Part shown: positions 1 through 46,241 of the stretch, one piece after another
How positions within the stretch are numbered: the stretch's first letter is position 1
How the letters are laid out: every line of letters begins with the position of its first letter
Assembly: GCF_000026545.1 (NCBI RefSeq)
Contig: NC_011601.1
Direction: 5' to 3' (one strand)
From: Escherichia coli O127:H6 str. E2348/69
Lineage (GTDB): Bacteria > Pseudomonadota > Gammaproteobacteria > Enterobacterales > Enterobacteriaceae
Length of the DNA: 64,000 bases
The notes under the pieces: model-generated
The model's database searches: none
The model's input: the letters and a program-made list of their open reading frames with translations, nothing else
What the model was told of the DNA's origin: nothing
Made by a program: the position numbers and the translations under genes

Positions 1-307
1 ACCGAGGTTCTATTTCCGTAAATAGTGGTGAGCCCTCATCCCAGATCCCAACATCATAGTGACTGCCGACGCCAAAGAATTTCGGTAGATCAACATAACC
101 ATAAAAATCAAACCAGTCTTTTCTTCCTGCTACAGTATATTCAGGGTAGAGGTCGTTAGTCAGTCTTGGGCCAAAGCGAGAGTCTGTGCGACCAATGACA
201 TTCAAGCTTTGATGTAACCAGCTTTCATCAATTTTAATTTCCTGAGCGTTTCCAATGCAAGGTATTAATAGAATGGATAAAGCTATCCAGTGCTTTTTTA
301 TATACAT
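1..307 (-). CDS. Tsx-family nucleoside-specific outer-membrane channel, N-terminal part only (gene continues beyond window start)
   Basis: Reverse-strand translation from ATG at 305-307 gives [21 protein letters not shown] (signal peptide) followed by ...FGPRL.ND.Y.EY....[10 protein letters not shown]...FFG.......GIW..GSPLF.EIEPR, which matches the conserved N-terminal region of E. coli Tsx as I recall it. Not in the ORF track because it runs off the window edge. Confidence 0.65.
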
Positions 308-383
308 AAATATATCTCTTATATATTGTTGATTTAGAGAGAAATAATGTCATCCAGTGAATGAATGGTATTATAAGTTTTTG

Positions 384-2003
384 TTATTTGCTTACTTCTA
401 CCCGCATTTCATTTACCTGTGCAGGAGTAATCTTGTGGCCTTTCTTAAAATAATCGATTACGACATTGGACATGTTATTTCCGGCGCGGACCTGGACATT
501 TTTCCCTTCTTTGAATGCCAGAAAACCATCGCCCCCAAGTGCAAGGAAAGTCGTAGTCGCAACATGGTAAATATTCGTATCAACGATCTCTTCACCATTA
601 ATTTTAAAAGATACAATGCGCTGACCTACTGGTTTCTGCAGGGTATAGCGCATTTCTGCGCCTTTTGACATTTGCAGGATGCCATTGGTAAGCGATGCCC
701 CGTGCTCCAGTAGGTTACGCAGATCCTTACCGCTGAGATCCATTTCAGTAAGTTCATTCTTGAAGGGGAATGTACTGGTAATGTCACCAAAGGTAATCGT
801 GCCTGCATTTATATCAGCACGTAAACTGCCGGAGTTTATCAACGCAATTTGTGCAGTCGGTGCAGCGACAAGCATTGCATCGGTAAACAGGTTGCCAAGT
901 TGCGATGACTCACCGTAGGCACGAGTTAATGCAATCGATGATTCACCGACTGGTTGGCGTACAATATCCGCCAGTTTTTTATTCCAGCCATTGATAACTT
1001 TTTGTGTGGTTGGATCGGGTATCCATTCATCGGCATAAACCGTTTTCAGCTCAAAGCTCTTCACTTTATGAGTACGAGCTGTAGGGTTGACATCAAGGAT
1101 TAATTTACCAATATCGATACCGCCACTGTCAGTCGAAAGGATTAAGGTGTTGCCGACTTTGATTGGTTCTGGCGTTCCGACGTGGGCATGCCCGGTAATC
1201 AGAATATCCAATCCTTTCACCTTGCTTGCGGTTTGAATATCTTTATCCAGCGCACGTCTAACATCTGTATTGCCAATGCTGGACTGACGCGCCGGTACGC
1301 CTTCATGAACCAGCGCCACGGTGAGGTCAACCTTATCACGTAACTCGTCGATATAATGCTGCAAATACTTCACTTCATCACGTGCTTCAATCCCCTGATT
1401 CTTGAGGGTCGCGGAAGATTTATCAAATCGGTTATTATTGTCATTATCGAGTCCCTGGAGAGAGAGCTCCGAGACCGTGTCATTAAATGCAAATACGCCG
1501 TGTAGCCCAACAATACCAATCTTGATGCCATCTTTTTCCAGGATGGTGTAGGGCTTGTTCCAGAAGGGTTTCTCACTCTCTTTATGATAAACATTGCCTA
1601 ATAAAACAGGGAAATTCGCTTTGCTTAATTGTCGGAGGGCATTATCCCAGCCATGGTCAAACTCATGATTACCGATTGATACTGCGTCAAAAGGCATGGT
1701 ATTCATAATATCAATTATTGCTTCGCCCTTTGTCAGGCTACTGATATATGGCCCGGTGAAATAGTCTCCAGCATCAAAATAAAAGGTGGCTTTATTTTTG
1801 GCTTTCTCTTGTTTTACTAACGTGGATATATTGGCAAAGCCACCAATGTCGCGTTTTCCGTCTGCGACATACGGTACTTTATAGGAATCCACATGAGCGT
1901 GAAGATCATTGGTATAAATAATCGTGACATCCTGCGCCATGACTGAGGTCGAAAAAATAGTCAGCAATGTTGCGGCAAGTAAAGTACGCTGCGCTGTTTT
2001 CAT
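384..2003 (-). CDS. periplasmic 5'-nucleotidase / metallophosphoesterase, UshA-CpdB family (paralog 1)
   Basis: ORF 384..2009; signal peptide (MKTAQRTLLAATLLTIFSTSVMA); calcineurin-like metallophosphatase motifs NDLHAH, DAGD, GNHEFD, GHAH. Start set at second ATG (2003) for better RBS spacing. Immediately upstream of and co-oriented with the Tsx-like gene. Confidence 0.8.
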   Translation of the reverse strand: MKTAQRTLLAATLLTIFSTSVMAQDVTIIYTNDLHAHVDSYKVPYVADGKRDIGGFANISTLVKQEKAKNKATFYFDAGDYFTGPYISSLTKGEAIIDIMNTMPFDAVSIGNHEFDHGWDNALRQLSKANFPVLLGNVYHKESEKPFWNKPYTILEKDGIKIGIVGLHGVFAFNDTVSELSLQGLDNDNNNRFDKSSATLKNQGIEARDEVKYLQHYIDELRDKVDLTVALVHEGVPARQSSIGNTDVRRALDKDIQTASKVKGLDILITGHAHVGTPEPIKVGNTLILSTDSGGIDIGKLILDVNPTARTHKVKSFELKTVYADEWIPDPTTQKVINGWNKKLADIVRQPVGESSIALTRAYGESSQLGNLFTDAMLVAAPTAQIALINSGSLRADINAGTITFGDITSTFPFKNELTEMDLSGKDLRNLLEHGASLTNGILQMSKGAEMRYTLQKPVGQRIVSFKINGEEIVDTNIYHVATTTFLALGGDGFLAFKEGKNVQVRAGNNMSNVVIDYFKKGHKITPAQVNEMRVEVSK

Positions 2004-2043
2004 TCGCATTCCTTGTTAAATAAATTGACTGATAAATGAGATT

Positions 2044-3597
2044 TTATTTGGCGACGTCCATGACTCGTTTAGTTAAGTCTGGGGTGACAGGTTTATGATT
2101 TTTGAAATAATCGATGATAGATTCCGCCGAGGTTGTTCCCGGTATCGTCTTCACATTTTTTCCATTCAAAAATGCTTCAAAACCGTCACCACCACTGGCA
2201 CAAAAGGAGTGCGTGGCAATACGATATGTTTGATTATCTTCCACGGGTTTGCCGTTAATGGTGAAAGAGATTAACCGTTGGTTGAGTGGTTTTTTGCTGT
2301 CATAGACAACCGCAACGCTTTTTGAAACCTGTAACACACCGTTAGTTAGATTGGTTGCATGCGTCATCAATGATTTGAGATCGCGGCCCGTCAAATCCAT
2401 CTCGATGAGGTCATTATTAAAGGGGAATGTGCTAATAACATCTCCCAGTGTGATATCGCCTTTAGGAAAATCAGCTCGCATCCCACCGCTATTTTGAAAT
2501 CCGGCAACGGCATCAGGTGTTTTTTCCATCATTGCATCAAGAATAAGGTTGCCGGTAGAAGAGGAACTACCATACTCACGTGTTAAAACTATGGGAGAAT
2601 GGCCGACAACTTCCTGTGTTATTTTGTTAAGCTGTGCACTCCATTTATCAATAGTATTTTGAACGATGGTGTCAGGTTTAAATTGATCTGCAAAGATGGT
2701 GATTAACTCACCATTATAACTATCAATTTTCTTCGTTTTCGGATTGTAATCAAGCACAAGTTTTCCGATGTTGGTGCCGTATGCATCGGTAGATACAATT
2801 AATGTGTTATTAACTTTTATTGGTTGCGGTGTTCCGACATGTGCGTGACCGGTAATTAAGACATCAACACCATTCACTTTTTTAGCTGTCTCAATATCTG
2901 CCTGTAGTAGCCGCTCCACATCTTTACTACCAAAGCTTGATTGACGCGCCGGGACACCTTCGTGAATTAGCAAAACGGTAATGTCGACTTTACCTTTTAA
3001 TTCTGCAAGTGCTTTATTTAAAAATTTAATTTCGTCTCTGGCTTCTACGCCTTCACGTGCTTTTGCCGCGACAGTATCATAGAAAGCGAATGCGCCATGC
3101 AATCCAATCACACCAATCTTTAAACCATCTTTTTCGATAATGGTCCACGGATGATCCCAAACTGGTTTATTCGTATCGGTGTAGTAGATATTTCCCAGCA
3201 GAATGGGGAATTTTGCTTTTGATAACTGAGACACCATATTGGGCACACCGTGATCGAACTCGTGATTACCAACAGACACCGCATCAAAGGGCATAGTGTT
3301 CATGATATCAATAATAGCTTCACCTTTGGTCAGTGTGCTGATATACGGCCCGGTAAAATAGTCGCCTGCATCAAAGAAAAACACATCTTTGCTTTTTTTC
3401 TTCGCTTCATTAACGATGCCTGCAATATTAGCCATACCACCTATAAGTCTGTTCTTATCAACAGCGATGATTTTTGCCGGATTGACATGTGCGTGAATGT
3501 CATTCGTATAATAAATAGTAACGTCCTGAGCTAGAACACTGTGAGAAAATATCACGCCGAATATGACTGATAATGTTGTAAATACAGTTTTCATCAT
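2044..3597 (-). CDS. periplasmic 5'-nucleotidase / metallophosphoesterase, UshA-CpdB family (paralog 2)
   Basis: 517-aa ORF with signal peptide and the same metallophosphatase motifs (NDIHAH, DAGD, GNHEFD, GHAH); more divergent than paralogs 1 and 3. AGGAGG-like RBS just upstream. Confidence 0.8.
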   Translation of the reverse strand: MMKTVFTTLSVIFGVIFSHSVLAQDVTIYYTNDIHAHVNPAKIIAVDKNRLIGGMANIAGIVNEAKKKSKDVFFFDAGDYFTGPYISTLTKGEAIIDIMNTMPFDAVSVGNHEFDHGVPNMVSQLSKAKFPILLGNIYYTDTNKPVWDHPWTIIEKDGLKIGVIGLHGAFAFYDTVAAKAREGVEARDEIKFLNKALAELKGKVDITVLLIHEGVPARQSSFGSKDVERLLQADIETAKKVNGVDVLITGHAHVGTPQPIKVNNTLIVSTDAYGTNIGKLVLDYNPKTKKIDSYNGELITIFADQFKPDTIVQNTIDKWSAQLNKITQEVVGHSPIVLTREYGSSSSTGNLILDAMMEKTPDAVAGFQNSGGMRADFPKGDITLGDVISTFPFNNDLIEMDLTGRDLKSLMTHATNLTNGVLQVSKSVAVVYDSKKPLNQRLISFTINGKPVEDNQTYRIATHSFCASGGDGFEAFLNGKNVKTIPGTTSAESIIDYFKNHKPVTPDLTKRVMDVAK

Positions 3598-3826
3598 CCC
3601 TCCTAGATAGGGGGTGTTACATTTGTTGAATTATTTAAATAAAAGACACATCGTGTCTTATTTTATGTAAGCATAGTTCAGAAAAGTATTGTGTGATCTT
3701 AGTAACAAATAATGTTATTAATTAAACATTGACCATGATTATATTTCACGGTCATACATTTATATATTTAATTAAATGAAAGGTAGTGATCTCTCTTAAT
3801 TTATGGTCGTTTGTCGAGTGTATTGA

Positions 3827-4951
3827 CTAACAAGATGGAGTGAGCGATTCATTGTATTTTAACGCCAGTGAGGTCAGCATTTGCGTTACGCGACCTGCGG
3901 ATAATAACGCGCTTTGGGTAAAGTCGTGTTGGTCTGTCAGCCATGTGATAAAACAACGACTGGTTGCCAGAGAAACATTTGCGCCCCTTTCTAAGCAGGC
4001 TCCCGTGAGTAGGCAGACCATCTTGCAGTTATTCCCCTGCTCCCAGCGCTGCCACTGATTTTGCCACCAACCATGGTATGTCGTTCCCTTAAAATGCCAG
4101 GGCGTATCAGCGTTACTGTCACTGATTTCTTCTTCTACGAACCAAAGTTCACCTTGTTGTTGGCGGAACTGATCTGCCCAGGCTGTAATAATTGCGCCTC
4201 TTAGAAAACATTCGTGTGAAATAATATGCGTTTTGACATCTGGATAGCGGATTTTCAGTATTCTGAAATGCCCGTGTGCCTTGATAACCGGGCGTAGTAT
4301 GGCTCCCTTACCGTTGCGCTTGAGTACAGCACTGCCATACTGAATTTCATCGAACTGGCTCCGGCGCAAGAATTGCGCTTCACGCATATCTACCTTCTGC
4401 ACGATATCGCGATGGTGCATAGTTGGTTCTGTGTTGCCCTTGTAACTGTACCGCAGACTGTCTCCTGTCTGATGTTGCGTATAATTCGTGGAGAGATGAA
4501 GAATGTTGCCACGAGTGGCGTCAAGACTGACTAAAACATACAGTTTTTGTACTGCGCTGGCCCCTTGAAAGGGTATGAACAGTTGAACGGTTTCAATGGC
4601 CTGGGGATGCGTAATTTCTTTCTGATATTTTTTAGGCGTCCAGACTTTTTTGCAGTTACGGCATTGAATGCGTTGCGAACCCTGTGGATTGTGACCATAA
4701 CAAATCATGTCTGTGCCATAACATACCGGGCAGAAATGGCCTTTCTCAATTGCATAAGTAGACAAGTGAACTGACAACCAGTCACGAAATTGTTGCTCGT
4801 CAAACAACGGCGGGTAACTGCCACATGCCCGACAGTGCAGTGCCGGATAACCCAGTTTATAGTCTGGCCAACTGTAATCTTCCGATGAGGCCAATCCCAA
4901 ATTTCGGCAACCGAACGTTTTACAGGCATTAATCGTAAACAGAGTCGACAT
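3827..4951 (-). CDS. hypothetical Cys-rich protein, predicted cytoplasmic, possible zinc-ribbon protein
   Basis: 374-aa ORF with no signal peptide. N-terminal half contains several CxxC pairs (CRACGS, CPVCYG, CRNCKK); C-terminal half is Trp/Gln-rich. I cannot assign a family from sequence alone. Confidence 0.55.
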   Translation of the reverse strand: MSTLFTINACKTFGCRNLGLASSEDYSWPDYKLGYPALHCRACGSYPPLFDEQQFRDWLSVHLSTYAIEKGHFCPVCYGTDMICYGHNPQGSQRIQCRNCKKVWTPKKYQKEITHPQAIETVQLFIPFQGASAVQKLYVLVSLDATRGNILHLSTNYTQHQTGDSLRYSYKGNTEPTMHHRDIVQKVDMREAQFLRRSQFDEIQYGSAVLKRNGKGAILRPVIKAHGHFRILKIRYPDVKTHIISHECFLRGAIITAWADQFRQQQGELWFVEEEISDSNADTPWHFKGTTYHGWWQNQWQRWEQGNNCKMVCLLTGACLERGANVSLATSRCFITWLTDQHDFTQSALLSAGRVTQMLTSLALKYNESLTPSC

Positions 4952-5083
4952 ATATCACCAACGATTTCACAAGGTCGTTGATTTTGTCCGGCAACTATCC
5001 CCTGCGGATGTGATTACTCTCACATAAATAAGTCTTTCAGAACGTAATGTAGCAATCCTTTATCTCACTGAAAGGGATTGTTT

Positions 5084-6637
5084 ATGAAAATTAAAATACT
5101 TGCTGCGGGTATCGCATTAACACTGCCGTTCTGGGCTTGCGCTAAAGATGTCACTATTATTTATACCAACGACCTCCATGCGCATGTAGAACCTTATAAA
5201 GTGCCGTGGATCGCTGACGGTAAACGGGATATTGGCGGCTGGGCAAATATCACTACGCTGGTTAAGCAAGAAAAAGCAAAAAATAAAGCGACATGGTTTT
5301 TTGATGCGGGCGACTATTTTACCGGGCCATATATCAGCAGCCTGACCAAAGGTAAGGCTATTATCGATATTATGAATACTATGCCGTTTGATGCCGTCAC
5401 AATAGGCAACCATGAATTTGACCACGGCTGGGACAACACATTATTACAGTTGAGCCAGGCAAAATTCCCTATTGTGCAGGGCAATATTTTTTATCAGAAC
5501 AGCAGTAAATCATTCTGGGATAAGCCCTATACCATCATCGAAAAAGACGGCGTGAAAATTGGCGTTATAGGTTTGCACGGAGTATTTGCCTTCAATGATA
5601 CGGTATCTGCTGCCACGCGCGTGGGTATTGAAGCGCGCGATGAAATTAAATGGCTACAACGTTATATCGATGAACTCAAAGGCAAGGTTGATTTGACCGT
5701 CGCCCTGATCCACGAAGGTGTTCCAGCCCGCCAGTCCAGTATGGGAGGCACAGATGTGCGTCGCGCGTTGGATAAAGATATTCAGACGGCAAGTCAGGTG
5801 AAAGGGCTGGATATTTTGATCACCGGACATGCACATGTGGGTACGCCGGAACCGATTAAAGTCGGCAATACGCTCATCCTCTCCACTGACAGCGGCGGGA
5901 TTGATGTGGGCAAACTGGTTCTCGACTACAAAGAGAAGCCGCATAATTTTACGGTGAAAAACTTCGAGCTTAAAACCATTTACGCTGACGAGTGGAAGCC
6001 CGATCTGCAAACGAAACAGGTGATCGACGGCTGGAATAAAAAGCTTGATGAAGTGGTGCAACAAACGGTGGCGCAATCGCCGGTTGAATTAAAACGTGCC
6101 TATGGTGAATCGGCTTCCCTCGGGAACCTGGCGGCTGACGCCTTACTGGCAGCAGCGGGTAAAAATACCCAACTGGCTTTAACAAACTCTGGTGGTATCC
6201 GCAATGAGATCCCCGCAGGGGCGATCACGATGGGCGGCGTCATCAGTACCTTCCCGTTCCCCAACGAACTGGTGACGATGGAACTCACGGGTAAACAATT
6301 ACGCAGTCTGATGGAACACGGCGCAAGTTTAAGCAATGGCGTTTTACAGGTATCGAAAGGCCTGGAAATGAAGTACGACAGCAGCAAGCCGGTTGGTCAG
6401 CGGGTAATCACACTGACTCTGAATGGCAAACCCATTGAAGATGCGACGGTTTATCACATTGCTACTCAGAGTTTCCTTGCTGATGGTGGAGATGGTTTTA
6501 CCGCCTTTACCGAAGGGAAAGCGCGTAACACAACGGGCGGTTATTACGTTTATCACGCGGTGGTTGATTACTTCAAAGCGGGCAACACCATTACGGATGA
6601 ACAGCTCAACGGTATGCGCGTGAAGGATATCAAATAA
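5084..6637 (+). CDS. periplasmic 5'-nucleotidase / metallophosphoesterase, UshA-CpdB family (paralog 3)
   Basis: ORF 5078..6637 begins with TTG; the ATG at 5084 with upstream AAGGGA is the likely start ([20 protein letters not shown] signal peptide). Closest paralog of the 384..2003 gene. Confidence 0.8.
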
Positions 6638-35245: not shown

Positions 35246-35648
35246 AGAAATTTGTCAGTATTCTGGTGACCTTAAATTTAACGCCCAACCAGAACCATTA
35301 TTTGCCACATTCCTTTTTATTCTTGCGTCTTCTTTACCTTCACTCTCCCCATAAAAATTATATTTTCAATACATCAACCAATACATACTTTAATTAATTG
35401 AATATAATTTATTTCTATTGTTGTGTTCATTTTTAATGATTAATGGAGTTTGTTATGTGATTACTTAACGTGTTGTTTTAACGATGATGGCTAATTATTC
35501 AGGTGGTTTTTGAGGGTGTTTTTTCTCCTCGGTAGAAATTTTTATTTTTAATGTGATCACGGTTGAATAATCACCTTTTCTCTCTTGTATGGTAGTAGGC
35601 GTAAAATTAAGTTTGAAGTGTCTATTTACAATACAGGAGATTGCAATA

Positions 35649-36863
35649 ATGAAAATTATTGCTGTGGATGTTTTTGTTACTTGTCCCGGGCGTAATTTCG
35701 TTACGCTTAAAATAACCACTGAAAGCGGACTTTGTGGATTAGGAGATGCCACGTTAAATGGTCGCGAATTGTCGGTCGCTTCTTATCTGAAAGATCATCT
35801 TTGTCCTCAATTAATTGGCCGCGATGCCAGCCGTATCGAAGATATCTGGCAATTCTTTTATAAAGGAGCTTACTGGCGACGTGGTCCCGTCACGATGTCG
35901 GCCATTTCTGCCATTGATATGGCGTTGTGGGATATCAAAGCTAAAGCGGCAAATATGCCATTGTATCAACTGCTTGGTGGCGCTTCTCGTGAAGGCGTGA
36001 TGGTTTATTGCCACACCACCGGGCGGACGATTGATGAAGTCCTTGAAGACTATGCAAAGCACCAGCAGATGGGCTTTAAGGCGATTCGTGTGCAGTGTGG
36101 TGTACCGGGTATGCAAACCACCTATGGTCTGGCGAAGGGCAAAGGACTGGCGTATGAACCAGCAACCAAAGGCCTGTGGCCAGAAGAGCAGTTGTGGTCT
36201 TCAGAAAAGTATCTCGATTTTACGCCGAAGTTATTTGAAGCGGTGCGTAATAAGTTCGGTTTTAACGAACATCTGTTGCATGACATGCACCATCGCCTGA
36301 CCCCCATCGAAGCGGCACGCTTTGGGAGGAGCATTGAGGATTACCACCTGTTCTGGATGGAAGATCCGACGCCTGCCGAGAACCAGGAATGTTTTCGTCT
36401 GATTCGCCAGCATACCGTGACGCCGATTGCGGTCGGTGAAGTGTTTAACAGTATCTGGGACTGCAAGCAGTTAATCGAAGAGCAGCTGATTGACTATATT
36501 CGCACGACGATTACCCATGCAGGCGGCATTACCGGGATGCGACGGATTGCCGATTTTGCATCGCTTTATCAGGTACGTACCGGTTCGCATGGCCCTTCAG
36601 ATTTATCGCCTGTTTGTCATGCGGCGGCGCTGCATTTTGACCTCTGGGTGCCAAACTTTGGCGTTCAGGAGTACATGGGCTATTCCGAACAAATGCTTGA
36701 AGTCTTCCCGCATAGCTGGCGCTTCGATGAAGGTTATATGCACCCAGGCGATGAACCGGGGCTGGGTATTTCTTTCGATGAGAAACTGGCGGCGAAATAT
36801 CCGTATGACCCAGCGTATCTCCCCGTCGCGCGACTGGAAGACGGTACATTGTGGAACTGGTAA
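35649..36863 (+). CDS. enolase-superfamily dehydratase, D-mannonate dehydratase (ManD) / RspA-like
   Basis: ORF 35589..36863; ATG at 35649 with AGGAG RBS gives 404 aa ([60 protein letters not shown]...). Very similar to the E. coli starvation-sensing protein RspA as I recall it, but at a different locus (between argH and oxyS). Confidence 0.8.
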
Positions 36864-36929
36864 TAGCGGTTCGCTTAATTATTTTCTGAATATTCATCAA
36901 ATCGATTAATTCCGCTCAAGGAGCTAAAA

Positions 36930-38213
36930 ATGGACATTGATGTGTCAACCAGTGTTGCGGGTAATAAACCGCAACGGATTCGTCGTATTCAGACAGTGAC
37001 CTTGGTTTTATTATTTATGGCGGGGATCGTTAATTTTCTCGACCGTTCATCATTGAGCGTGGCAGGTGAAGCGATTCGTGGCGAGTTAGGATTATCGGCG
37101 ACAGAGTTTGGTGTTTTGCTTTCTGCATTTTCTCTGTCTTATGGTTTTTCACAACTTCCTTCCGGTATTTTGCTAGACCGCTTTGGCCCACGAATAGTTT
37201 TAGGCGCAGGTTTAATATTCTGGTCATTAATGCAGGCATTAACAGGAATGGTTAATTCTTTTAGCCACTTTATTTTAATGCGTATCGGTCTGGGTATTGG
37301 CGAAGCGCCATTTATGCCTGCGGGAGTAAAGTCGATCACCGACTGGTATGCGCAAAAAGAACACGGCACGGCGCTGGGGATTTTTAACTCATCTACCGTT
37401 ATCGGTCAGGCTATCGCGCCTCCTGCTCTTGTGTTGATGCAACTGGCATGGGGCTGGCGGGCAATGTTCGTCATCATCGGCGTGGCGGGGATTCTGGTTG
37501 GGATCTGTTGGTACGCGTGGTATCGCAACCGGGCGCAGTTTGTCCTGACTGACGAAGAACGGACGTATCTCTCCGCGCCGGTTAAACCGCGTCCACAGCT
37601 GCAATTTAGCGAGTGGCTGGCGCTGTTTAAGCATCGGACAACCTGGGGGATGATTTTAGGTTTCTCTGGCGTCAATTATACCGGTTGGCTCTACATCGCG
37701 TGGTTACCCGGTTATTTACAAGCCGAGCAAGGCTTCAGTCTGGCGAAAACCGGTTGGGTGGCGGCGATTCCTTTCCTCGCGGCGGCGGTCGGGATGTGGG
37801 TTAACGGTATTGTTGTCGATCGGCTGGCGAAAAAAGGCTACGACCTGGCGAAGACGCGTAAAACGGCTATTGTCTGCGGTTTGATGATGTCGGCATTAGG
37901 CACGTTGCTGGTCGTGCAATCCTCCTCGCCAGCCCAGGCGGTAGCGTTTATCTCAATGGCGCTGTTCTGCGTGCATTTCGCGGGAACATCTGCATGGGGA
38001 CTGGTGCAGGTGATGGTGTCAGAAACAAAAGTGGCTTCCATCGCCGGGATTCAAAACTTTGGCAGTTTTGTTTTTGCTTCCTTTGCTCCGATCGTAACCG
38101 GTTGGGTAGTGGATACCACGCACTCGTTTAATCTGGCGCTGGTTATCGCGGCCTGTGTGACGTTCACCGGGGCGCTGTGTTACTTCTTTATTGTCAAAGA
38201 TCGGATTGAGTAA
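36930..38213 (+). CDS. MFS transporter, anion:cation symporter (ACS) family (hexuronate/galactonate/glucarate-type)
   Basis: 427-aa ORF with AAGGAG RBS; 12-TM-like hydropathy; N-terminal FLDRSSLSVAG motif characteristic of ExuT/DgoT/GudP-type acid-sugar permeases. Confidence 0.75.
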   Translation: MDIDVSTSVAGNKPQRIRRIQTVTLVLLFMAGIVNFLDRSSLSVAGEAIRGELGLSATEFGVLLSAFSLSYGFSQLPSGILLDRFGPRIVLGAGLIFWSLMQALTGMVNSFSHFILMRIGLGIGEAPFMPAGVKSITDWYAQKEHGTALGIFNSSTVIGQAIAPPALVLMQLAWGWRAMFVIIGVAGILVGICWYAWYRNRAQFVLTDEERTYLSAPVKPRPQLQFSEWLALFKHRTTWGMILGFSGVNYTGWLYIAWLPGYLQAEQGFSLAKTGWVAAIPFLAAAVGMWVNGIVVDRLAKKGYDLAKTRKTAIVCGLMMSALGTLLVVQSSSPAQAVAFISMALFCVHFAGTSAWGLVQVMVSETKVASIAGIQNFGSFVFASFAPIVTGWVVDTTHSFNLALVIAACVTFTGALCYFFIVKDRIE

Positions 38214-38464: not shown

Positions 38465-39382
38465 ATGAATATTCGTGATCTTGAGTACCTGGTGGCATTG
38501 GCTGAACACCGCCATTTTCGGCGTGCGGCAGATTCCTGCCACGTTAGCCAGCCGACGCTTAGCGGGCAAATTCGTAAGCTGGAAGATGAGCTGGGCGTGA
38601 TGTTGCTGGAGCGGACCAGCCGTAAAGTGTTATTCACCCAAGCGGGAATGCTGCTGGTGGATCAGGCGCGTACCGTGCTGCGTGAGGTGAAAGTCCTTAA
38701 AGAGATGGCAAGCCAGCAGGGCGAGACGATGTCCGGGCCGCTGCATATTGGTTTGATTCCCACGGTTGGACCGTACCTGCTACCGCATATTATCCCGATG
38801 CTGCACCAGACCTTTCCAAAGCTGGAAATGTATCTGCATGAAGCACAGACCCACCAGTTACTGGCGCAACTGGACAGCGGCAAACTCGATTGCGTGATCC
38901 TCGCGCTGGTGAAAGAGAGCGAAGCATTCATTGAAGTGCCGTTGTTTGATGAGCCAATGTTGCTGGCTATCTATGAAGACCACCCGTGGGCGAACCGCGA
39001 ATGCGTACCGATGGCCGATCTGGCAGGGGAAAAACTGCTGATGCTGGAAGACGGTCACTGTTTGCGCGATCAGGCAATGGGTTTCTGTTTTGAAGCCGGG
39101 GCGGATGAAGATACACACTTCCGCGCGACCAGCCTGGAAACTCTGCGCAACATGGTGGCGGCAGGTAGCGGGATCACTTTACTGCCTGCGCTGGCTGTGC
39201 CGCCGGAGCGCAAACGCGATGGGGTTGTTTATTTGCCGTGTATTAAGCCGGAACCACGCCGTACCATTGGTCTGGTTTATCGTCCAGGCTCACCGCTGCG
39301 CAGCCGCTATGAGCAGCTGGCAGAGGCCATCCGCGCAAGAATGGATGGCCATTTCGATAAAGTGTTAAAACAGGCGGTTTAA
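38465..39382 (+). CDS. oxyR: LysR-family oxidative-stress regulator
   Basis: ORF 38435..39382; start at ATG 38465 ([44 protein letters not shown]...), 305 aa. Confidence 0.96.
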
Positions 39383-40765
39383 GCCATTTAGCGCAGCTAC
39401 CCGATAGGCTTCCGCCATCGTCGGGTAGTTAAAGGTGGTGTTGACGAAGTACTCAATAGTGTTGCCGCCACCTTTCTGTTCCATAATCGCCTGACCGATA
39501 TGAATAATTTCGGCAGCGCGCTCGCCAAAGCAGTGAATACCCAGAATCTCTTTTGTTTCCCGATGGAACAAAATTTTCAGCGTGCCCACGTTCATGCCGA
39601 CGATTTGTGCACGTGCCAGATGTTTAAACTGGGCGCGGCCCACTTCATATGGCACTTTCATCGCGGTCAGCTGCTGTTCGGTTTTGCCCACAGAGCTGAT
39701 TTCCGGGATGGTGTAAATACCGGTAGGGATATCTTCAATCAGATGTGCGGTGGCTTCACCTTTCACCAGCGCCTGCGCGGCAATGCGCCCCTGGTCATAG
39801 GCCGCCGACGCCAGGCTCGGATAACCAATCACGTCGCCCACCGCGTAAACGTGCGGCTGTGCGGTCTGATACATGCTGTTGACCTTCAGCTGTCCGCGAC
39901 TGTCAGTTTCCAGCCCAATGTTCTGTAATGCCAGCGAATCGGTATTACCGGTGCGACCGTTGGCATAGAGCAGACAGTCAGCTTTCAGTTTTTTACCCGA
40001 CTTCAGATGCATGATCACACCGTCGTCACAGCCTTCGATCTTCTCGTACTCTTCGTTGTGACGAATCACTACGCCACTGTTCCAGAAGTGATAGGAGAGA
40101 GAATCTGACATCTCTTGATCGAGAAATGCCAGCAGGCGATCGCGGGTGTTGATCAGATCCACTTTTACATCCATACCGCGGAAGATCGACGCATATTCAC
40201 AGCCGATCACTCCAGCACCGTAAATAAGTACATGGCGCGGTTCGTGGTGCATGCTAAGAATTGAGTCGCTGTCATAAATGCGTGGATGGGGGAAATCAAC
40301 ATCTGTTGGATGATATGGACGAGAACCGCAGGCAATAACAAATTTTTCAGCAGTTAGTGTTTCGACGCTGCCGTCCGGGCAATCCAGCGCCAACGTATGC
40401 TCATCAACAAAGCGAGCGTTCCCCTGCAATATTTCACAGTGATTACGTTCGTAAAATCCCTGACGCATGCGCGTTTGTTGATTAATCACGTTATCGGCAT
40501 GGTTAAGGATATCGGCAAAAGAAGAGCGGAGCAGTCGGGAATGGTCGCTGTATAGTGGGTTTTGATTGAATTCTATAATGCGGCTGACGGCGTGACGGAG
40601 AGCTTTCGACGGGATGGTGCCCCAGTGGGTGCAACCGCCGCCAACATTTTGATAACGCTCGATAACTGCGACGCGCGCACCTTGCTTAACCAGGCCCATT
40701 GCAGCGCCTTCGCCGCCGGGGCCGGAACCTATTACTATGGCATCGTAATCGTAGGAATGTGGCAT
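39365..40765 (-). CDS. sthA: soluble pyridine nucleotide transhydrogenase
   Basis: 466-aa ORF ([38 protein letters not shown]...), FAD/NAD-binding; convergent overlap with oxyR as in K-12. Confidence 0.96.
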
Positions 40766-41094
40766 GGTAGGGCTTACCTGTTCTTATACATAAAAGCAAC
40801 AGAATGGTAACATTTTATCGCGGGTAAGCCAATTGATCCCCGTCATTTATCTGGCTATATCGTGAGCGGCCTTTGCTTTGTCTTCCTCCTTCTTATTTTA
40901 TTTATTCACTATTAATAGCTTTTTCTTATGGCTGATAGTTTTATCTTGCCGAAGCGTGCTTTTTTGTTATTGTCTTTATGAAATATTCTTATAAAACAAA
41001 TATATAAATATTTTATATTGATGAGTTATTTGTATTTATACCATCAATATAATCCGTTAATTAGCCTGTTTATAAGTGAATAAAGGAATAGCCG

Positions 41095-42261
41095 ATGATC
41101 GAACACTATATTCGTGGGTTTGAGGAAGAACTTCGCGAGATCCGCCATCAGATCCACGAAAACCCGGAGCTGGGATTACAAGAATTTAAAACCAGTGCTT
41201 TGGTTGCGGAAAAGCTGCGCCAGTGGGGCTATGAGGTTGAGCAAGGGCTGGCGACAACCGGCGTGGTAGCCACGTTAAAAGTGGGCGACGGAGAGAAAAG
41301 TATTGGCCTGCGGGCGGATATGGATGCGTTGCCGATTTATGAAAATAGTGGCAAGCCCTGGGCCAGTAAACATCCTGGTTTAATGCACGCCTGCGGGCAT
41401 GACGGGCATACCACCATACTGCTGGGGGCTGCGCGTTATTTTGCCGAAACCCGCCGTTTTAACGGCACGTTACGCCTTATCTTCCAGCCTGCGGAAGAGA
41501 TGATTAACGGCGGTGAGATCATGGTTAAAGAGGGGCTTTTTGATCGTTTCCCCTGCGATGTCATTTTCGGGATGCACAACATGCCGGGTTTGCCGGTCGG
41601 CAAGTTTTTCTTCCAGCCTGGGGCGCTGATGGCGTCAATGGATCAGTTCCATATTACGGTTCGTGGTTGTGGCGGACACGGTGCGATCCCGCACAAAGCC
41701 ATCGATCCAGTGCTGGTTGCCGCACATATCACCACCGCATTACAAAGCATTGTGTCGCGCAATGTTGATCCGCTGGAAGCGGCGGTAATTACCGTCGGCA
41801 GCATTGTTGCGGGTGAGGCGGCTAACGTCATTCCTGACAGTGCTGAGATGAAAATCAGTGTCCGCTCTCTTAGCCGCGATACCCGACAACTTCTTCTGAC
41901 CCGTATTCCTGCTCTTGCACAAGCCCAGGCTGCCAGCTTTGGCGCTACGGCTGAGGTTACGCATGTTAACGGTACACCGGTATTAGTAAATGACGAGGAG
42001 ATGGCGCGCTTCGCCTGGCAGGTGGCGTGCAAAACATTTGGTGAAGATCGGGCTGAGTTTGGCATCAAACCCCTGATGGGCAGTGAAGATTTCTCTTTCA
42101 TGCTGGAAGCCCAACCCAAAGGCGGTTTCCTGTTATTCGGTAATGGCGATGTCGGGGAAGGTTCCTGCATGGTGCATAACCCCGGTTACGACTTTAACGA
42201 TGCAAGCCTGGTCCCGGCAAGCAGCTACTGGGGCGCACTGGTTGAAGCCTGGCTGCAATAA
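41095..42261 (+). CDS. M20D-family amidohydrolase (aminoacylase / hippurate hydrolase-like)
   Basis: 388-aa ORF with the HACGHDGH metal-binding motif and overall M20D architecture; preceded by about 300 bp of very AT-rich DNA. Confidence 0.75.
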   Translation: MIEHYIRGFEEELREIRHQIHENPELGLQEFKTSALVAEKLRQWGYEVEQGLATTGVVATLKVGDGEKSIGLRADMDALPIYENSGKPWASKHPGLMHACGHDGHTTILLGAARYFAETRRFNGTLRLIFQPAEEMINGGEIMVKEGLFDRFPCDVIFGMHNMPGLPVGKFFFQPGALMASMDQFHITVRGCGGHGAIPHKAIDPVLVAAHITTALQSIVSRNVDPLEAAVITVGSIVAGEAANVIPDSAEMKISVRSLSRDTRQLLLTRIPALAQAQAASFGATAEVTHVNGTPVLVNDEEMARFAWQVACKTFGEDRAEFGIKPLMGSEDFSFMLEAQPKGGFLLFGNGDVGEGSCMVHNPGYDFNDASLVPASSYWGALVEAWLQ

Positions 42262-42303
42262 ATAAAACAACACACAACAACACTTTTTGGCAAGGAACAT
42301 GGA

Positions 42304-43620
42304 ATGACGGCGATCGTAAATGAAACCGTGAGTGTGAAGAAAAAGCCCAGCGGCAGGCGGGTGATCTTTGCCTCGGCGTTTGGCAATGCGCTCGAATTTT
42401 TTGATTTTGGCGTCTACAACTTTTTTGTGGTCTATATCAGTACGCTTTTCTTCCCACCCAGTGCCGATCATAACGTCGCGCTGTTACTGGCATTTGCAAC
42501 GTTTGGTGTGAGCTTTTTTATGCGTCCGCTCGGTGGGATTATCGTTGGTGCCTGGGCCGATCGCTTCGGGCGTAAACCGGCGATGGTGTTCACTATTGCT
42601 CTGATGAGCCTCGGTACGCTGATGATCGGCATCGCACCGACGTATGAAACGGCGGGCTATTGGGGAACCGCAACGCTGGTGCTGGCGCGTCTAATTCAGG
42701 GTGTTGCGGCAGGTGGTGAAGTCGGGGCTTCAATGTCGCTACTGGTGGAGTCAGCTCCGGCAAATCGTCGCGGCTTTTACAGCAGTTGGTCACTGGCGAC
42801 TCAAGGCCTGGCAACAACTTTTGGCGGTGTTGTCGCTTTAGGTTTAAGCGCATGGCTACCGTTCGCCACAGGTTCAGAAACCGTAATGGCAGAATGGGGC
42901 TGGCGTGTGCCGTTTTTTATTGGCGTGTTATTAGCACCTATCGGTTGCTGGTTGCGTCTGAGCCTGGAAAATGACGTACCTGAGCCAGTGCGCAATAAAA
43001 AAGCTGCTACCAGCGAAAGCGCGTTTTCTCTGCTCCTGCAACATAAGGCGACTATCGTTAATGGCGTTTTACTCGCTATTGGTAGCACGGTAGCAACCTA
43101 TATTTCCCTCTTTTACTATGGCACATGGGCGGCGAAGTATCTGGCAATGCCTCAACACTATTCTCATGCAGCGATGTTACTGGCGGGGGTAATTACGTTT
43201 GTGGGCGCGCTGTTGGTGGGGATGCTATGTGATTCGGTTGGGCGTAAAAAGCTGATTTTAATCTCCCGTGTGATGGTGCTTCTCTGTAGCTGGCCGTCAT
43301 TCTGGCTGTTGGTGAATTACCCAAGCCCTGGCATGTTGCTGACGGTGGTTTTCGTGATGGTCAGCTTTACCACGCTTGGCGGTGTGCCAGTGATGTTGTT
43401 GATCTCTGAACTGTTGCCGAAACGGATTCGGGCATTAGGTTTCGCGCTGGTTTATAGCATTGGCGTAGCAATCTTTGGCGGTTTTGCGCAATATTTCGCC
43501 ACGCAATCCATCGTGTTGCTGGATAGTCTGACGGCTCCGGCGTGGTATCTGGGTGGAGGCACGTTGCTGTCGATGCTGGCGTTGTTGTACGTAAAAGAAC
43601 CGGCCAAAGAATTGCAGTAA
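42304..43620 (+). CDS. MFS transporter, metabolite:H+ symporter (MHS) family
   Basis: 438-aa ORF; MHS signature [10 protein letters not shown] in the loop 2-3 region; 12-TM-like hydropathy; 42 bp downstream of the amidohydrolase, likely co-transcribed. Confidence 0.75.
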
Positions 43621-43726
43621 ATATGTTTTATTGCGTTACCGTTCATTCACAACACTGGAGCAATCCAGTATGTTCATTCTCTGGTATAGTGCCAGCAGTA
43701 CTTTTGGCAAGGATTCAGACATCGTG

Positions 43727-44374
43727 ATGGGCGTAAGAGCGCAACAAAAAGAAAAAACCCGCCGTTCGCTGGTGGAAGCCGCATTTAGCCAATTAAGTGC
43801 TGAACGCAGCTTCGCCAGCCTGAGTTTGCGTGAAGTGGCACGAGAAGCAGGCATTGCTCCCACCTCTTTTTATCGGCATTTCCGCGACGTAGACGAACTG
43901 GGTCTGACCATGGTTGATGAGAGTGGTTTAATGCTACGCCAACTCATGCGTCAGGCGCGTCAGCGTATCGCCAAAGGCGGGAGTGTGATCCGTACCTCGG
44001 TCTCCACATTTATGGAGTTCATCGGTAATAATCCTAACGCCTTCCGGTTATTATTGCGGGAACGCTCCGGCACCTCCGCTGCGTTTCGTGCCGCCGTTGC
44101 GCGTGAAATTCAGCACTTCATTGCGGAACTTGCGGACTATCTGGAACTCGAAAACCATATGCCGCGTGCGTTTACTGAAGCGCAAGCCGAAGCAATGGTG
44201 ACGATTGTCTTCAGTGCGGGGGCCGAGGCGTTGGATGTCGGCGTCGAGCAACGCCGGCAATTAGAAGAGCGACTGGTACTGCAGCTGCGAATGATTTCGA
44301 AAGGGGCTTATTACTGGTATCGCCGTGAACAAGAGAAAACCGCAATTATTCCGGGAAATGTGAAGGACGAGTAA
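43727..44374 (+). CDS. fabR: TetR-family repressor of unsaturated fatty-acid biosynthesis
   Basis: ORF 43631..44374; start placed at ATG 43727 ([52 protein letters not shown]...), 215 aa; an upstream in-frame start is possible. Confidence 0.88.
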
Positions 44375-45873: not shown

Positions 45874-46001
45874 GATGTATCCTGAAAAATTAAAGTACGC
45901 GGCGATTGTAGGGATTGCCCATCAGATGTCCAGATCTTGATGAATTCCTATTTGTGAGCTACGTCTGGACAGTAACTTGTTACAACCTGTAGCATCCACT
46001 T

Positions 46002-46241
46002 GCCGGTCCTGTGAGTTAATAGGGAATCCAGTGCGAATCTGGAGCTGACGCGCAGCGGTAAGGAAAGGTGCGATGATTGCGTTATGCGGACACTGCCATC
46101 CGGTGGGAAGTCATCATCTCTTAGTATCTTAGATACCCCTCCAAGCCCGAAGACCTGCCGGCCAACGTCGCATCTGGTTCTCATCATCGCGTAATATTGA
46201 TGAAACCTGCGGCATCCTTCTTCTATTGTGGATGCTTTACA
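46002..46241 (+). ncRNA. cobalamin (adenosylcobalamin) riboswitch, btuB 5' leader
   Basis: Leader starting GCCGGTCCTGTGAGTTAATAGGGAATCCAGTGCGAATCTGGAGCTGACGCGCAGCGGTAAGGAAAGGTGCGATGATTGCG... matches the E. coli btuB leader as I recall it. Confidence 0.75.

Follow-up and report, generated by a model that had tools for sequence, protein, structure and literature searches.

The window analyzed here is a 64,000-nucleotide stretch of the Escherichia coli O127:H6 strain E2348/69 chromosome, to which it is 100% identical, and the RefSeq annotation shows the same gene order as the listing of open reading frames (ORFs). Our subject is a pair of genes between sthA and fabR, with the order across the locus being oxyR, sthA on the minus strand, a 388-residue ORF, a 438-residue ORF, fabR, yijD, trmA and btuB. 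The first ORF of the pair encodes an M20D amidohydrolase and the second encodes an MHS-like symporter of the MFS. In K-12 MG1655, sthA and fabR are direct divergent neighbors without the pair, as a preliminary description of the window had stated; their annotated distance is 276 base pairs (bp). That description also viewed the DNA of 40766-43630 as an insertion that K-12 lacks. A K-12-absent segment is real and comprises 40884-43585 (2,702 bp) rather than that entire range, and its polarity is the reverse of an insertion: comparison of the sequences shows that K-12 lost the operon by deletion and that the pair is an old Escherichia operon. The features that bear on this finding are as follows.

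39365-40765, minus strand: sthA, from the ORF listing and RefSeq.
40766-40883, no strand assigned: sthA-side part of the intergenic region, common to K-12 and outside the polymorphic block (99.2% identity to K-12, 96.6% to Escherichia albertii), presumably holding the sthA promoter.
40884-43585, plus strand: polymorphic block of 2,702 bp, with breakpoints set by BLAST and alignment against K-12.
41095-42261, plus strand: M20D metallo-amidohydrolase gene, 388 residues (CFT073 c4924; Sakai ECs4892, also written ECs_4892), from Pfam, NCBIfam and motifs.
42304-43620, plus strand: gene for the MHS-like MFS proton symporter, 438 residues (Sakai ECs4893, also written ECs_4893), from Pfam and NCBIfam.
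43586-43620, plus strand: last 35 nucleotides of the transporter ORF (…VKEPAKELQ and stop), kept as a deletion scar in K-12-type genomes and 100% identical in K-12.
43724-44374, plus strand: fabR, a context gene, from the RefSeq annotation.

In BLAST and alignment against the K-12 intergenic region, homology extends to 40883, breaks, and resumes at 43586. The retained 35 nucleotides are preceded in K-12 by a 75-bp filler (positions 3910-3984 of the K-12 locus, L002) that replaces 40884-43585. Cassette transporters of Burkholderia and Paraburkholderia, which are described below, end in …KET-AGRALD, and this terminus aligns residue for residue with the E. coli …VKEP-A-KELQ, stop included. Because the C-terminus and stop are homologous to those of such distant transporters, the 35 nucleotides in K-12 are the remnant of a gene, which indicates that K-12 carries a deletion. 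E. albertii NBRC 107761 features the pair at the identical position and in the identical order (oxyR-sthA-M20D-MHS-fabR-yijD-trmA-btuB). Furthermore, synonymous divergence (dS) between B2 and O55:H7 alleles is 0.17 for the M20D gene and 0.43 for the MHS gene, compared with 0.07-0.10 for flanking genes, and in the comparison of E. coli with E. albertii the values for the pair are 0.22 and 0.66, respectively, against 0.33-0.62 in flanking genes. Block alleles therefore coalesce deeper than the flanking genes, which also argues that the K-12 state is a deletion. The phylogroup-F strain SMS-3-5 shows the same breakpoints and filler as K-12, with a scar that is 98.5% identical and a filler with 3 differences; a scar that is common to both strains and yet has diverged indicates a single deletion that occurred long ago.

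These observations bear on the view of the preliminary description, in which the sthA-fabR junction was originally K-12-like and horizontal transfer inserted the pair there within the B2 lineage. That view draws on the absence of the pair from K-12 and 72% of genomes, on the AT-rich leader, and on relatives outside Escherichia that belong to Beta- and Alphaproteobacteria and share at most 63% identity among the matches listed. Such distances indicate that horizontal transfer did occur at some earlier time. An insertion at this junction is nevertheless very improbable, given the homologous gene end retained in K-12, the same locus in E. albertii, and the deeper divergence of the block alleles. 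The block also lacks the hallmarks of a genomic island, with no integrase or tRNA gene in the locus annotation, no direct repeats at the block ends that could represent a target site, and a coding G+C of 0.48-0.59 for the pair, which is typical of the genome and of the flanks.

The polymorphism is widespread within the species. Among 5,426 complete E. coli genomes, the block is present in 1,505 and the K-12-type scar in 3,918 (K-12 and 3,917 others, about 72%), with almost no intermediate states. The block alleles fall into two groups, with identities to E2348/69 of at least 98.5% in one (including ST131, CFT073, PMV-1 and MP1) and of 93-95% in the other (including O157:H7, O55:H7 and O166:H15). 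A synteny comparison across E. coli lineages, which the preliminary description had proposed as a check, places the pair in B2 and in O157:H7/O55:H7 and the scar in strains such as K-12 (phylogroup A) and SMS-3-5 (phylogroup F). The scar is thus present in lineages that are not each other's nearest relatives, and the phylogroup split sets a minimum age for the presence/absence polymorphism. The locus itself is not a new finding, as c4924-c4926 were already listed in a 2010 synteny survey as a uropathogenic E. coli (UPEC) gene set missing in K-12 (PMC2831201). The survey reports the set in CFT073, F11, 536, UTI89 and E2348/69, and it scores 042, SMS-3-5, K-12, HS, the other surveyed intestinal pathotype strains and Shigella as lacking it. 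O157:H7 is also listed as negative; Sakai nonetheless contains both genes, ECs_4892 and ECs_4893. An initial literature search for an amidohydrolase at sthA/fabR or an M20D hippurate hydrolase in E. coli returned no paper.

Pseudogenization in related strains would speak against a working unit. Annotation gives both genes as intact in each genome inspected, including E2348/69, CFT073, Sakai and DEC5D, and full-length 388-residue proteins are encoded on thousands of contigs. The ratio of nonsynonymous to synonymous divergence (dN/dS) stays at 0.03-0.04 for either gene, whichever alleles are paired (0.035-0.038 for the transporter), which shows, by the pattern of substitutions, that the genes are under purifying selection. 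It is scarcely credible, then, that the pair is a decaying, functionless remnant heading for loss in all lineages. Loss from most E. coli, the lack of the LysR regulator found with other cassettes, and a basal expression that seems low, as judged from a 100-fold induction described below, would each fit such decay; a dN/dS this low over divergence up to a dS of 0.66, the thousands of full-length proteins, and a leader that is 96% conserved between species argue against it. Taken together, we conclude that the pair is an ordinary accessory operon of uncharacterized function, conserved and annotated in thousands of genomes, and that the new points are the scar in the K-12 reference, the conserved cassette minus LysR, and the connection between the AT-rich leader and a published TosR response.

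The 388-residue protein is clearly an M20D amidohydrolase by its profile matches, as the preliminary description had recognized from the HACGHDGH motif. It matches Pfam PF01546 Peptidase_M20 (E-value 5.8e-44) and PF07687 M20_dimer (8.5e-13), and it scores 358.7 bits against the TIGR01891 'amidohydrolases' model, which has a cutoff of 153.75. The motifs HACGHDGH at residues 98-105 (with HACGHD at 98-103), PAEE at 132-135, GMHN at 159-162 and HNPGYDF at 361-367 align with those of YxeP, and a metal-bridging role of the Cys in HxCGHD is known from the description of CsAga (PMC11511702). The best matches among solved structures are YxeP (1.3e-71), ILL2 (3.6e-69) and the Corynebacterium N-acyl-glutamine aminoacylase (1.9e-67). 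More specific models place the protein outside their equivalog families: it scores 336.3 bits against the CpsA carboxypeptidase model NF040868 (cutoff 500) and 322.1 bits against the DoeB2 deacetylase model NF038260 (cutoff 550). M20D enzymes with this degree of similarity cleave hippurate, N-acetyl amino acids, N-acyl-glutamines, indole-3-acetic acid (IAA)-amino acids or Met-X dipeptides, and the substrate range within M20D shifts at 50-60% identity (PMC11511702). Because similarly related enzymes act on such diverse substrates, the exact substrate is not readable from sequence.

The 438-residue transporter is a member of the MFS, with Pfam Sugar_tr at 114.4 bits (cutoff 22.3) and MFS_1 at 98.8 bits (cutoff 33.4). 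Its best NCBIfam model is the MHS model TIGR00883, to which it aligns over the full length (residues 27-416 against profile positions 1-392) with 323.5 bits, below the curated cutoff of 443.45; the earlier identification of the gene is right if taken as MHS-like. Its best match in the PDB has an E-value of 3e-7, so that no solved structure is close. The second-best NCBIfam model is TcuC (NF011656), and the other model scores are 212 for PRK10406 (KgtP-like), 205 for ProP and 185 for ShiA. MHS-family carriers (TC 2.A.1.6) are known for organic acids and osmolytes, not for peptides.

The TcuC match and several annotations raise the reading that the operon is a citrate or tricarboxylate utilization unit or that the hydrolase is AbgA, the p-aminobenzoyl-glutamate hydrolase. 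RefSeq names the transporter a citrate-proton symporter, PMC2831201 refers to citrate metabolism, and Sakai ECs_4892 is named abgA. The TcuC score of 286.3 bits is below its cutoff of 445, which places the protein outside the citrate/tricarballylate symporters, and a hydrolase partner would make no sense for citrate itself. The AbgA label was rejected on comparison: the hydrolase is 28% identical to K-12 AbgA and 24% identical to AbgB, its alignment with AbgA contains a 33-residue gap facing an AbgA-specific segment, and the locus features neither abgB nor abgT. We therefore regard either annotation-based reading as having very little chance of being correct.

The closest hydrolases outside Escherichia, among the matches listed, are 47-63% identical and come from Beta-, Alpha- and some Gammaproteobacteria. 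In at least nine unrelated loci from these three classes, the next gene after M20D encodes an MHS homologue with 36-45% identity to the E. coli transporter, and in at least five of the nine a divergent LysR regulator lies upstream of the cassette. The E. coli block contains no LysR gene, and the sole LysR-type match nearby is oxyR. That the same M20D-then-MHS pair appears in nine loci suggests a conserved functional cassette that entered Escherichia minus its regulator, and it strengthens the suggestion of the preliminary description that the pair is an uptake-and-deacylation unit. By analogy with abgR-abgABT of K-12 and the LysR, MFS and HipO genes of Pseudomonas putida, both described below, the pair would most likely serve to import an anionic amide-linked compound and to hydrolyze it within the cytoplasm.

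A plasmid source for the pair was considered and set aside, as all 1,196 plasmid homologues are <60% identical. In a Klebsiella record (L087, K. pneumoniae 19PDR22 'plasmid p2', 187951-199081), the M20D gene is 57% identical, and its partners are an MFS transporter of another type and an AraC-type regulator; the record is labeled a 221-kb linear non-mobilizable plasmid and yet contains chromosomal-looking sapA, pspF and pspABCD, such that it is possibly a misassigned chromosomal contig.

An alternative for the hydrolase is a Met-X-type carboxydipeptidase, like BcepM20D, HmrA or the Deinococcus radiodurans enzyme, with a transporter that imports small peptides or their derivatives. M20D proteins of Burkholderia cepacia, D. 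radiodurans and Staphylococcus aureus are Met-X carboxydipeptidases (Jamdar 2015, as cited in PMC11511702), and the S. aureus M20 peptidase structure 4EWT matches the hydrolase at 6.8e-64. The transporter speaks against this alternative, since its NCBIfam neighbors TcuC, KgtP-like, ProP and ShiA belong to the organic acid and osmolyte carriers described above, and E. coli already has dedicated peptide permeases. We accordingly give a peptide substrate only a small chance.

The labels 'hipO' and 'putative hippuricase' imply instead that the operon takes up and hydrolyzes hippurate (N-benzoylglycine), which would be useful in hippurate-rich urine. JGI and KEGG (K01451) label the protein a hippurate hydrolase, the operon is enriched in B2/UPEC lineages, and it is induced together with fimbrial operons by TosR. 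In Pseudomonas putida KT2440, PP_2701, PP_2703 and PP_2704 encode LysR, MFS and HipO proteins, respectively, and the purified PP_2704 enzyme cleaves hippurate, its preferred substrate, and weakly cleaves N-acetyl-L-alanine (bioRxiv 10.64898/2025.12.09.693157). Orthology of the E. coli hydrolase to PP_2704 or to Campylobacter jejuni HipO is not established: a Pseudomonas cassette (L020) has a hydrolase that is 53% identical, and the homologue list carries no KT2440 label. Substrate preferences within M20D shift, moreover, at the 50-60% identity noted above. In addition, a set of 42 E. coli strains of unknown genotype did not hydrolyze N-benzoylglycine (Perry 1998, as cited in PMC4867780), and NCTC 10418 was negative by gas chromatography-mass spectrometry. 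These negative strains are not decisive because an operon that is silent in culture would give the same result. We consider hippurate an unlikely substrate.

Expression of the operon would be driven from the leader, which contains the following features.

40884-41094, plus strand: leader of the operon with its putative promoter, conserved and AT-rich, 211 bp, 74.9% A+T.
40988-41016, plus strand: AT-rich motif CTTATAAAACAAATATATAAATATTTTAT, which PMC5956150 (Table S2) lists upstream of the TosR-responsive gene c4924, located here in the window.
41013-41052, no strand assigned: perfect 11-bp inverted repeat TTATATTGATG-N18-CATCAATATAA, from a repeat search, overlapping the -10 and a candidate operator.
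41048-41053, plus strand: candidate -10 hexamer TATAAT (TAAAAT in O55:H7 and E. albertii), read from the sequence, at a putative promoter position.
41083-41087, plus strand: Shine-Dalgarno sequence AAGGA, 7 nucleotides before the hydrolase ATG, read from the sequence.

The AT-rich leader noted in the preliminary description is real and shorter than had been claimed, as 40884-41094 is the richest 211-bp A+T stretch in the window (99.94th percentile) and 40766-40883 is ordinary sequence common to K-12. Its identity is 96.2% to E. albertii and 95.7% to O55:H7. Conservation of about 96% despite a synonymous divergence of 0.17-0.66 in the adjacent genes points to functional constraint. The leader was also proposed to be a target of nucleoid proteins, for which there is indirect support in the literature. 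The CFT073 c4924 protein is identical to the E2348/69 hydrolase (WP_000569571.1), and c4924 showed a log2 fold change of 6.6 (about 100-fold) on overproduction of TosR, a PapB-family regulator that binds AT-rich DNA, which placed it within the top five induced genes (PMC5956150). The AT-rich motif at 40988-41016 was reported 78 bp upstream of c4924 (PMC5956150). In O157:H7 Sakai, ECs4893 increased by a log2 value of 2.09 (about 4-fold) as cultures in glucose minimal medium entered stationary phase (PMC2241611). These reports suggest that the operon is low in ordinary culture and strongly inducible. Such a pattern is consistent with, and does not prove, silencing by nucleoid proteins at the AT-rich leader, in which H-NS may participate.

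Other searches of the leader help to delimit how the operon might be controlled. The candidate -10 hexamer was not reported by a consensus promoter scan because its -35 is poor. The inverted repeat that overlaps it could be an operator for some regulator; its left arm is invariant in O55:H7 and E. albertii, its right arm is conserved at 10 of 11 bases, and its chance probability is about 0.02 by a rough estimate. No CRP site (TGTGA-N6-TCACA with up to 3 mismatches) was found in the leader, which leaves the stationary-phase induction without an obvious CRP basis. A search for the H-NS high-affinity motif gave a single weak and uninformative match, located in the shared intergenic part. Rfam shows no match in the leader, with only OxyS and the btuB cobalamin riboswitch nearby; the fold of the 5' untranslated region is unremarkable (z = +0.42), and no convincing small ORF is present.

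We also considered the preliminary suggestion that the block changes the upstream regulation of fabR, for which the following feature is relevant.

43646-43674, plus strand: sigma-70-like promoter match TTCACA-17-TATGTT upstream of fabR, the only promoter-like match in 40600-43900.

The case for such a change is weak, as the block and K-12 states share the 141 bp upstream of fabR, this promoter match included. The proximal fabR promoter is thus untouched by the breakpoints, and only read-through from the operon could differ. The spacer between the transporter gene and fabR (43621-43723) contains weak hairpins without a T-run and no convincing intrinsic terminator, with an unremarkable fold (z = -1.39), and it is possible that transcription from the induced operon reads into fabR-yijD in strains with the block. 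The start of fabR is annotated differently among genomes: K-12 b3963 starts from an upstream ATG (43670) and has 234 residues, and RefSeq fabR of E2348/69, CFT073 and SMS-3-5 starts 54 nucleotides later at a GTG (43724) and has 216 residues. The upstream ATG overlaps with the -10 hexamer predicted at 43669-43674, which speaks for the shorter form.

Based on these results, we think it probable that the pair is an ancient, vertically inherited two-gene operon of Escherichia for uptake and hydrolysis of an amide, lost once in the K-12 type. An MHS-like MFS symporter would import an anionic amide-linked compound on the proton gradient; the likeliest cargo would be a conjugate such as an N-acyl- or N-aroyl-L-amino acid. 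A cytoplasmic di-metal M20D amidohydrolase would then cleave the amide bond, so that the cell could feed on the amino acid and the carboxylic acid set free. The unit probably descends from a LysR-regulated M20D-MHS cassette like those of Burkholderiales and other Proteobacteria, and it would have entered the lineage, without the LysR gene, before E. coli and E. albertii split. One old 2.7-kb deletion then left 35 nucleotides of the transporter gene and the 75-bp filler, a scar allele that about 72% of complete E. coli genomes now carry. Where the operon is kept, its expression is presumably driven from the conserved, very AT-rich leader, low in standard culture and strongly switchable, with silencing that may depend on H-NS.

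Several points weigh against this reading. The transporter falls below the curated cutoff of every NCBIfam model, the MHS subfamily model included, and there is no demonstrated substrate for either protein or for relatives above 63% identity among the matches listed. The genes around the cassette differ at every locus (CoA-transferase, luciferase-like monooxygenase, DAO, methyltransferase and amidase genes) and give no clue to the substrate. The depth of acquisition is read from E. albertii as the single outgroup, as the comparison of intergenic regions does not extend to E. fergusonii, E. marmotae, E. ruysiae or Salmonella, and the matches listed do not settle whether the pair is absent from other Enterobacteriaceae. 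The M20D dS to E. albertii (0.22) is below that of the flanking genes, which leaves room for some exchange between species. The filler has no detectable source among the B2, E and E. albertii alleles, the window or any of the loci compared, and its seeming alignment with the leader by MAFFT is at the level expected for T-rich DNA. Finally, the TosR effect came from overproduction and may be indirect, and the part assigned to H-NS is by inference only.

A more specific proposal is that the operon scavenges host-derived conjugates, such as hippurate, phenylacetylglutamine and other N-acyl amino acids that abound in urine and gut contents, is silenced by nucleoid proteins at its conserved AT-rich leader and is induced together with adhesins by a PapB-family regulator of the TosR type in extraintestinal pathogens, with the polymorphism being kept by niche-dependent selection rather than drift. 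We offer this proposal as a rather improbable one. The K-12 sthA-fabR intergenic region, the reference sequence in work on the sthA and fabR promoters, is itself a deletion scar, made up in part of the tail of a transporter gene and the 75-bp filler, and this matters for mapping sthA and fabR regulation or for taking K-12 as ancestral. A conserved operon under purifying selection marks the B2 lineages (extraintestinal pathogenic E. coli, the enteropathogenic strain E2348/69 and ST131) and those of O157:H7. Misleading labels are in circulation, as abgA fails comparison, citrate-proton symporter is below its cutoff, and hippurate hydrolase is without support. The substrate should be findable with a simple panel of N-acyl amino acids, and one regulator, TosR, induces the operon strongly. 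No general concept is changed by the finding.

Other parts of the window feature accessory DNA as well. Between argH and oxyR (about 35650-38213) lies a second two-gene block, which encodes the D-mannonate dehydratase ManD and an MFS transporter, with an AT-rich stretch of about 75% A+T near 35350. The manD block is present in E2348/69 and CFT073. K-12, O55:H7, Sakai and SMS-3-5 lack it, and in these strains oxyS/oxyR come immediately after argH. The btuB gene (46242-48125) encodes a BtuB of 627 residues that is only 56% identical to the 614-residue BtuB of CFT073; the first 35 or so and the last 50 or so residues are almost identical, which looks like mosaic replacement of the barrel/loop region in this vitamin B12, colicin and phage receptor. 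The cobalamin riboswitch upstream of btuB (45987-46176) is normal. The region from metL to metF (about 1-6100) contains three paralogs annotated as 'bifunctional metallophosphatase/5'-nucleotidase', together with one hypothetical gene and a gene for a Tsx-like nucleoside channel, with AT-rich sequence near 208, 2615 and 3616, and it looks like another accessory cluster. An IS3-family element, IS1397, lies between gldA and yijF (about 13760-15110).

Among known systems, the LysR-M20D-MHS cassettes of Burkholderia, Paraburkholderia and related Proteobacteria (L047, L007, L010, L015, L022, L030 and L052) have the same gene order with genes 20-150 bp apart, hydrolases that are 51-58% identical and transporters that are 37-45% identical to those of E. 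coli, and a homologous transporter C-terminus and stop. They differ from the E. coli operon in their divergent LysR gene and GC-rich genomes, and they are also uncharacterized. The P. putida PP_2701/2703/2704 genes resemble the operon in that an M20D hydrolase adjoins an MFS transporter, there with a LysR regulator nearby, but the reported order is transporter then hydrolase; the likeness is one of gene content. For the individual proteins, YxeP of Bacillus subtilis (1YSJ), Arabidopsis ILL2 (1XMB), the Corynebacterium aminoacylase (6SLF) and the S. aureus protein (4EWT) show full-length homology to the hydrolase (E-values of 1e-64 to 1e-72) and share its Cys/His, Glu-Glu and His motifs. These structures are distant, their names imply substrates that range from IAA-amino acid conjugates to N-acyl-glutamines, and none predicts the substrate here. 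The best-scoring models for the transporter are those of the MHS carriers TcuC/CitA, KgtP, ProP and ShiA, which are proton symporters for organic acids with 12 transmembrane segments; because the transporter is below every curated cutoff, it is not an equivalog of any of them. The E. coli K-12 abgR-abgABT system follows a similar logic, in which a proton symporter imports an N-acyl amino acid, p-aminobenzoyl-glutamate, and M20D-type hydrolases cleave it. Abg differs in requiring two hydrolase subunits, neither close in sequence to the hydrolase studied here, and in using an AbgT-family carrier rather than an MFS protein. Furthermore, abgR-abgABT includes a divergent LysR-type regulator, as do M20D-MHS cassettes outside Escherichia, whereas the operon between sthA and fabR includes no regulator gene.

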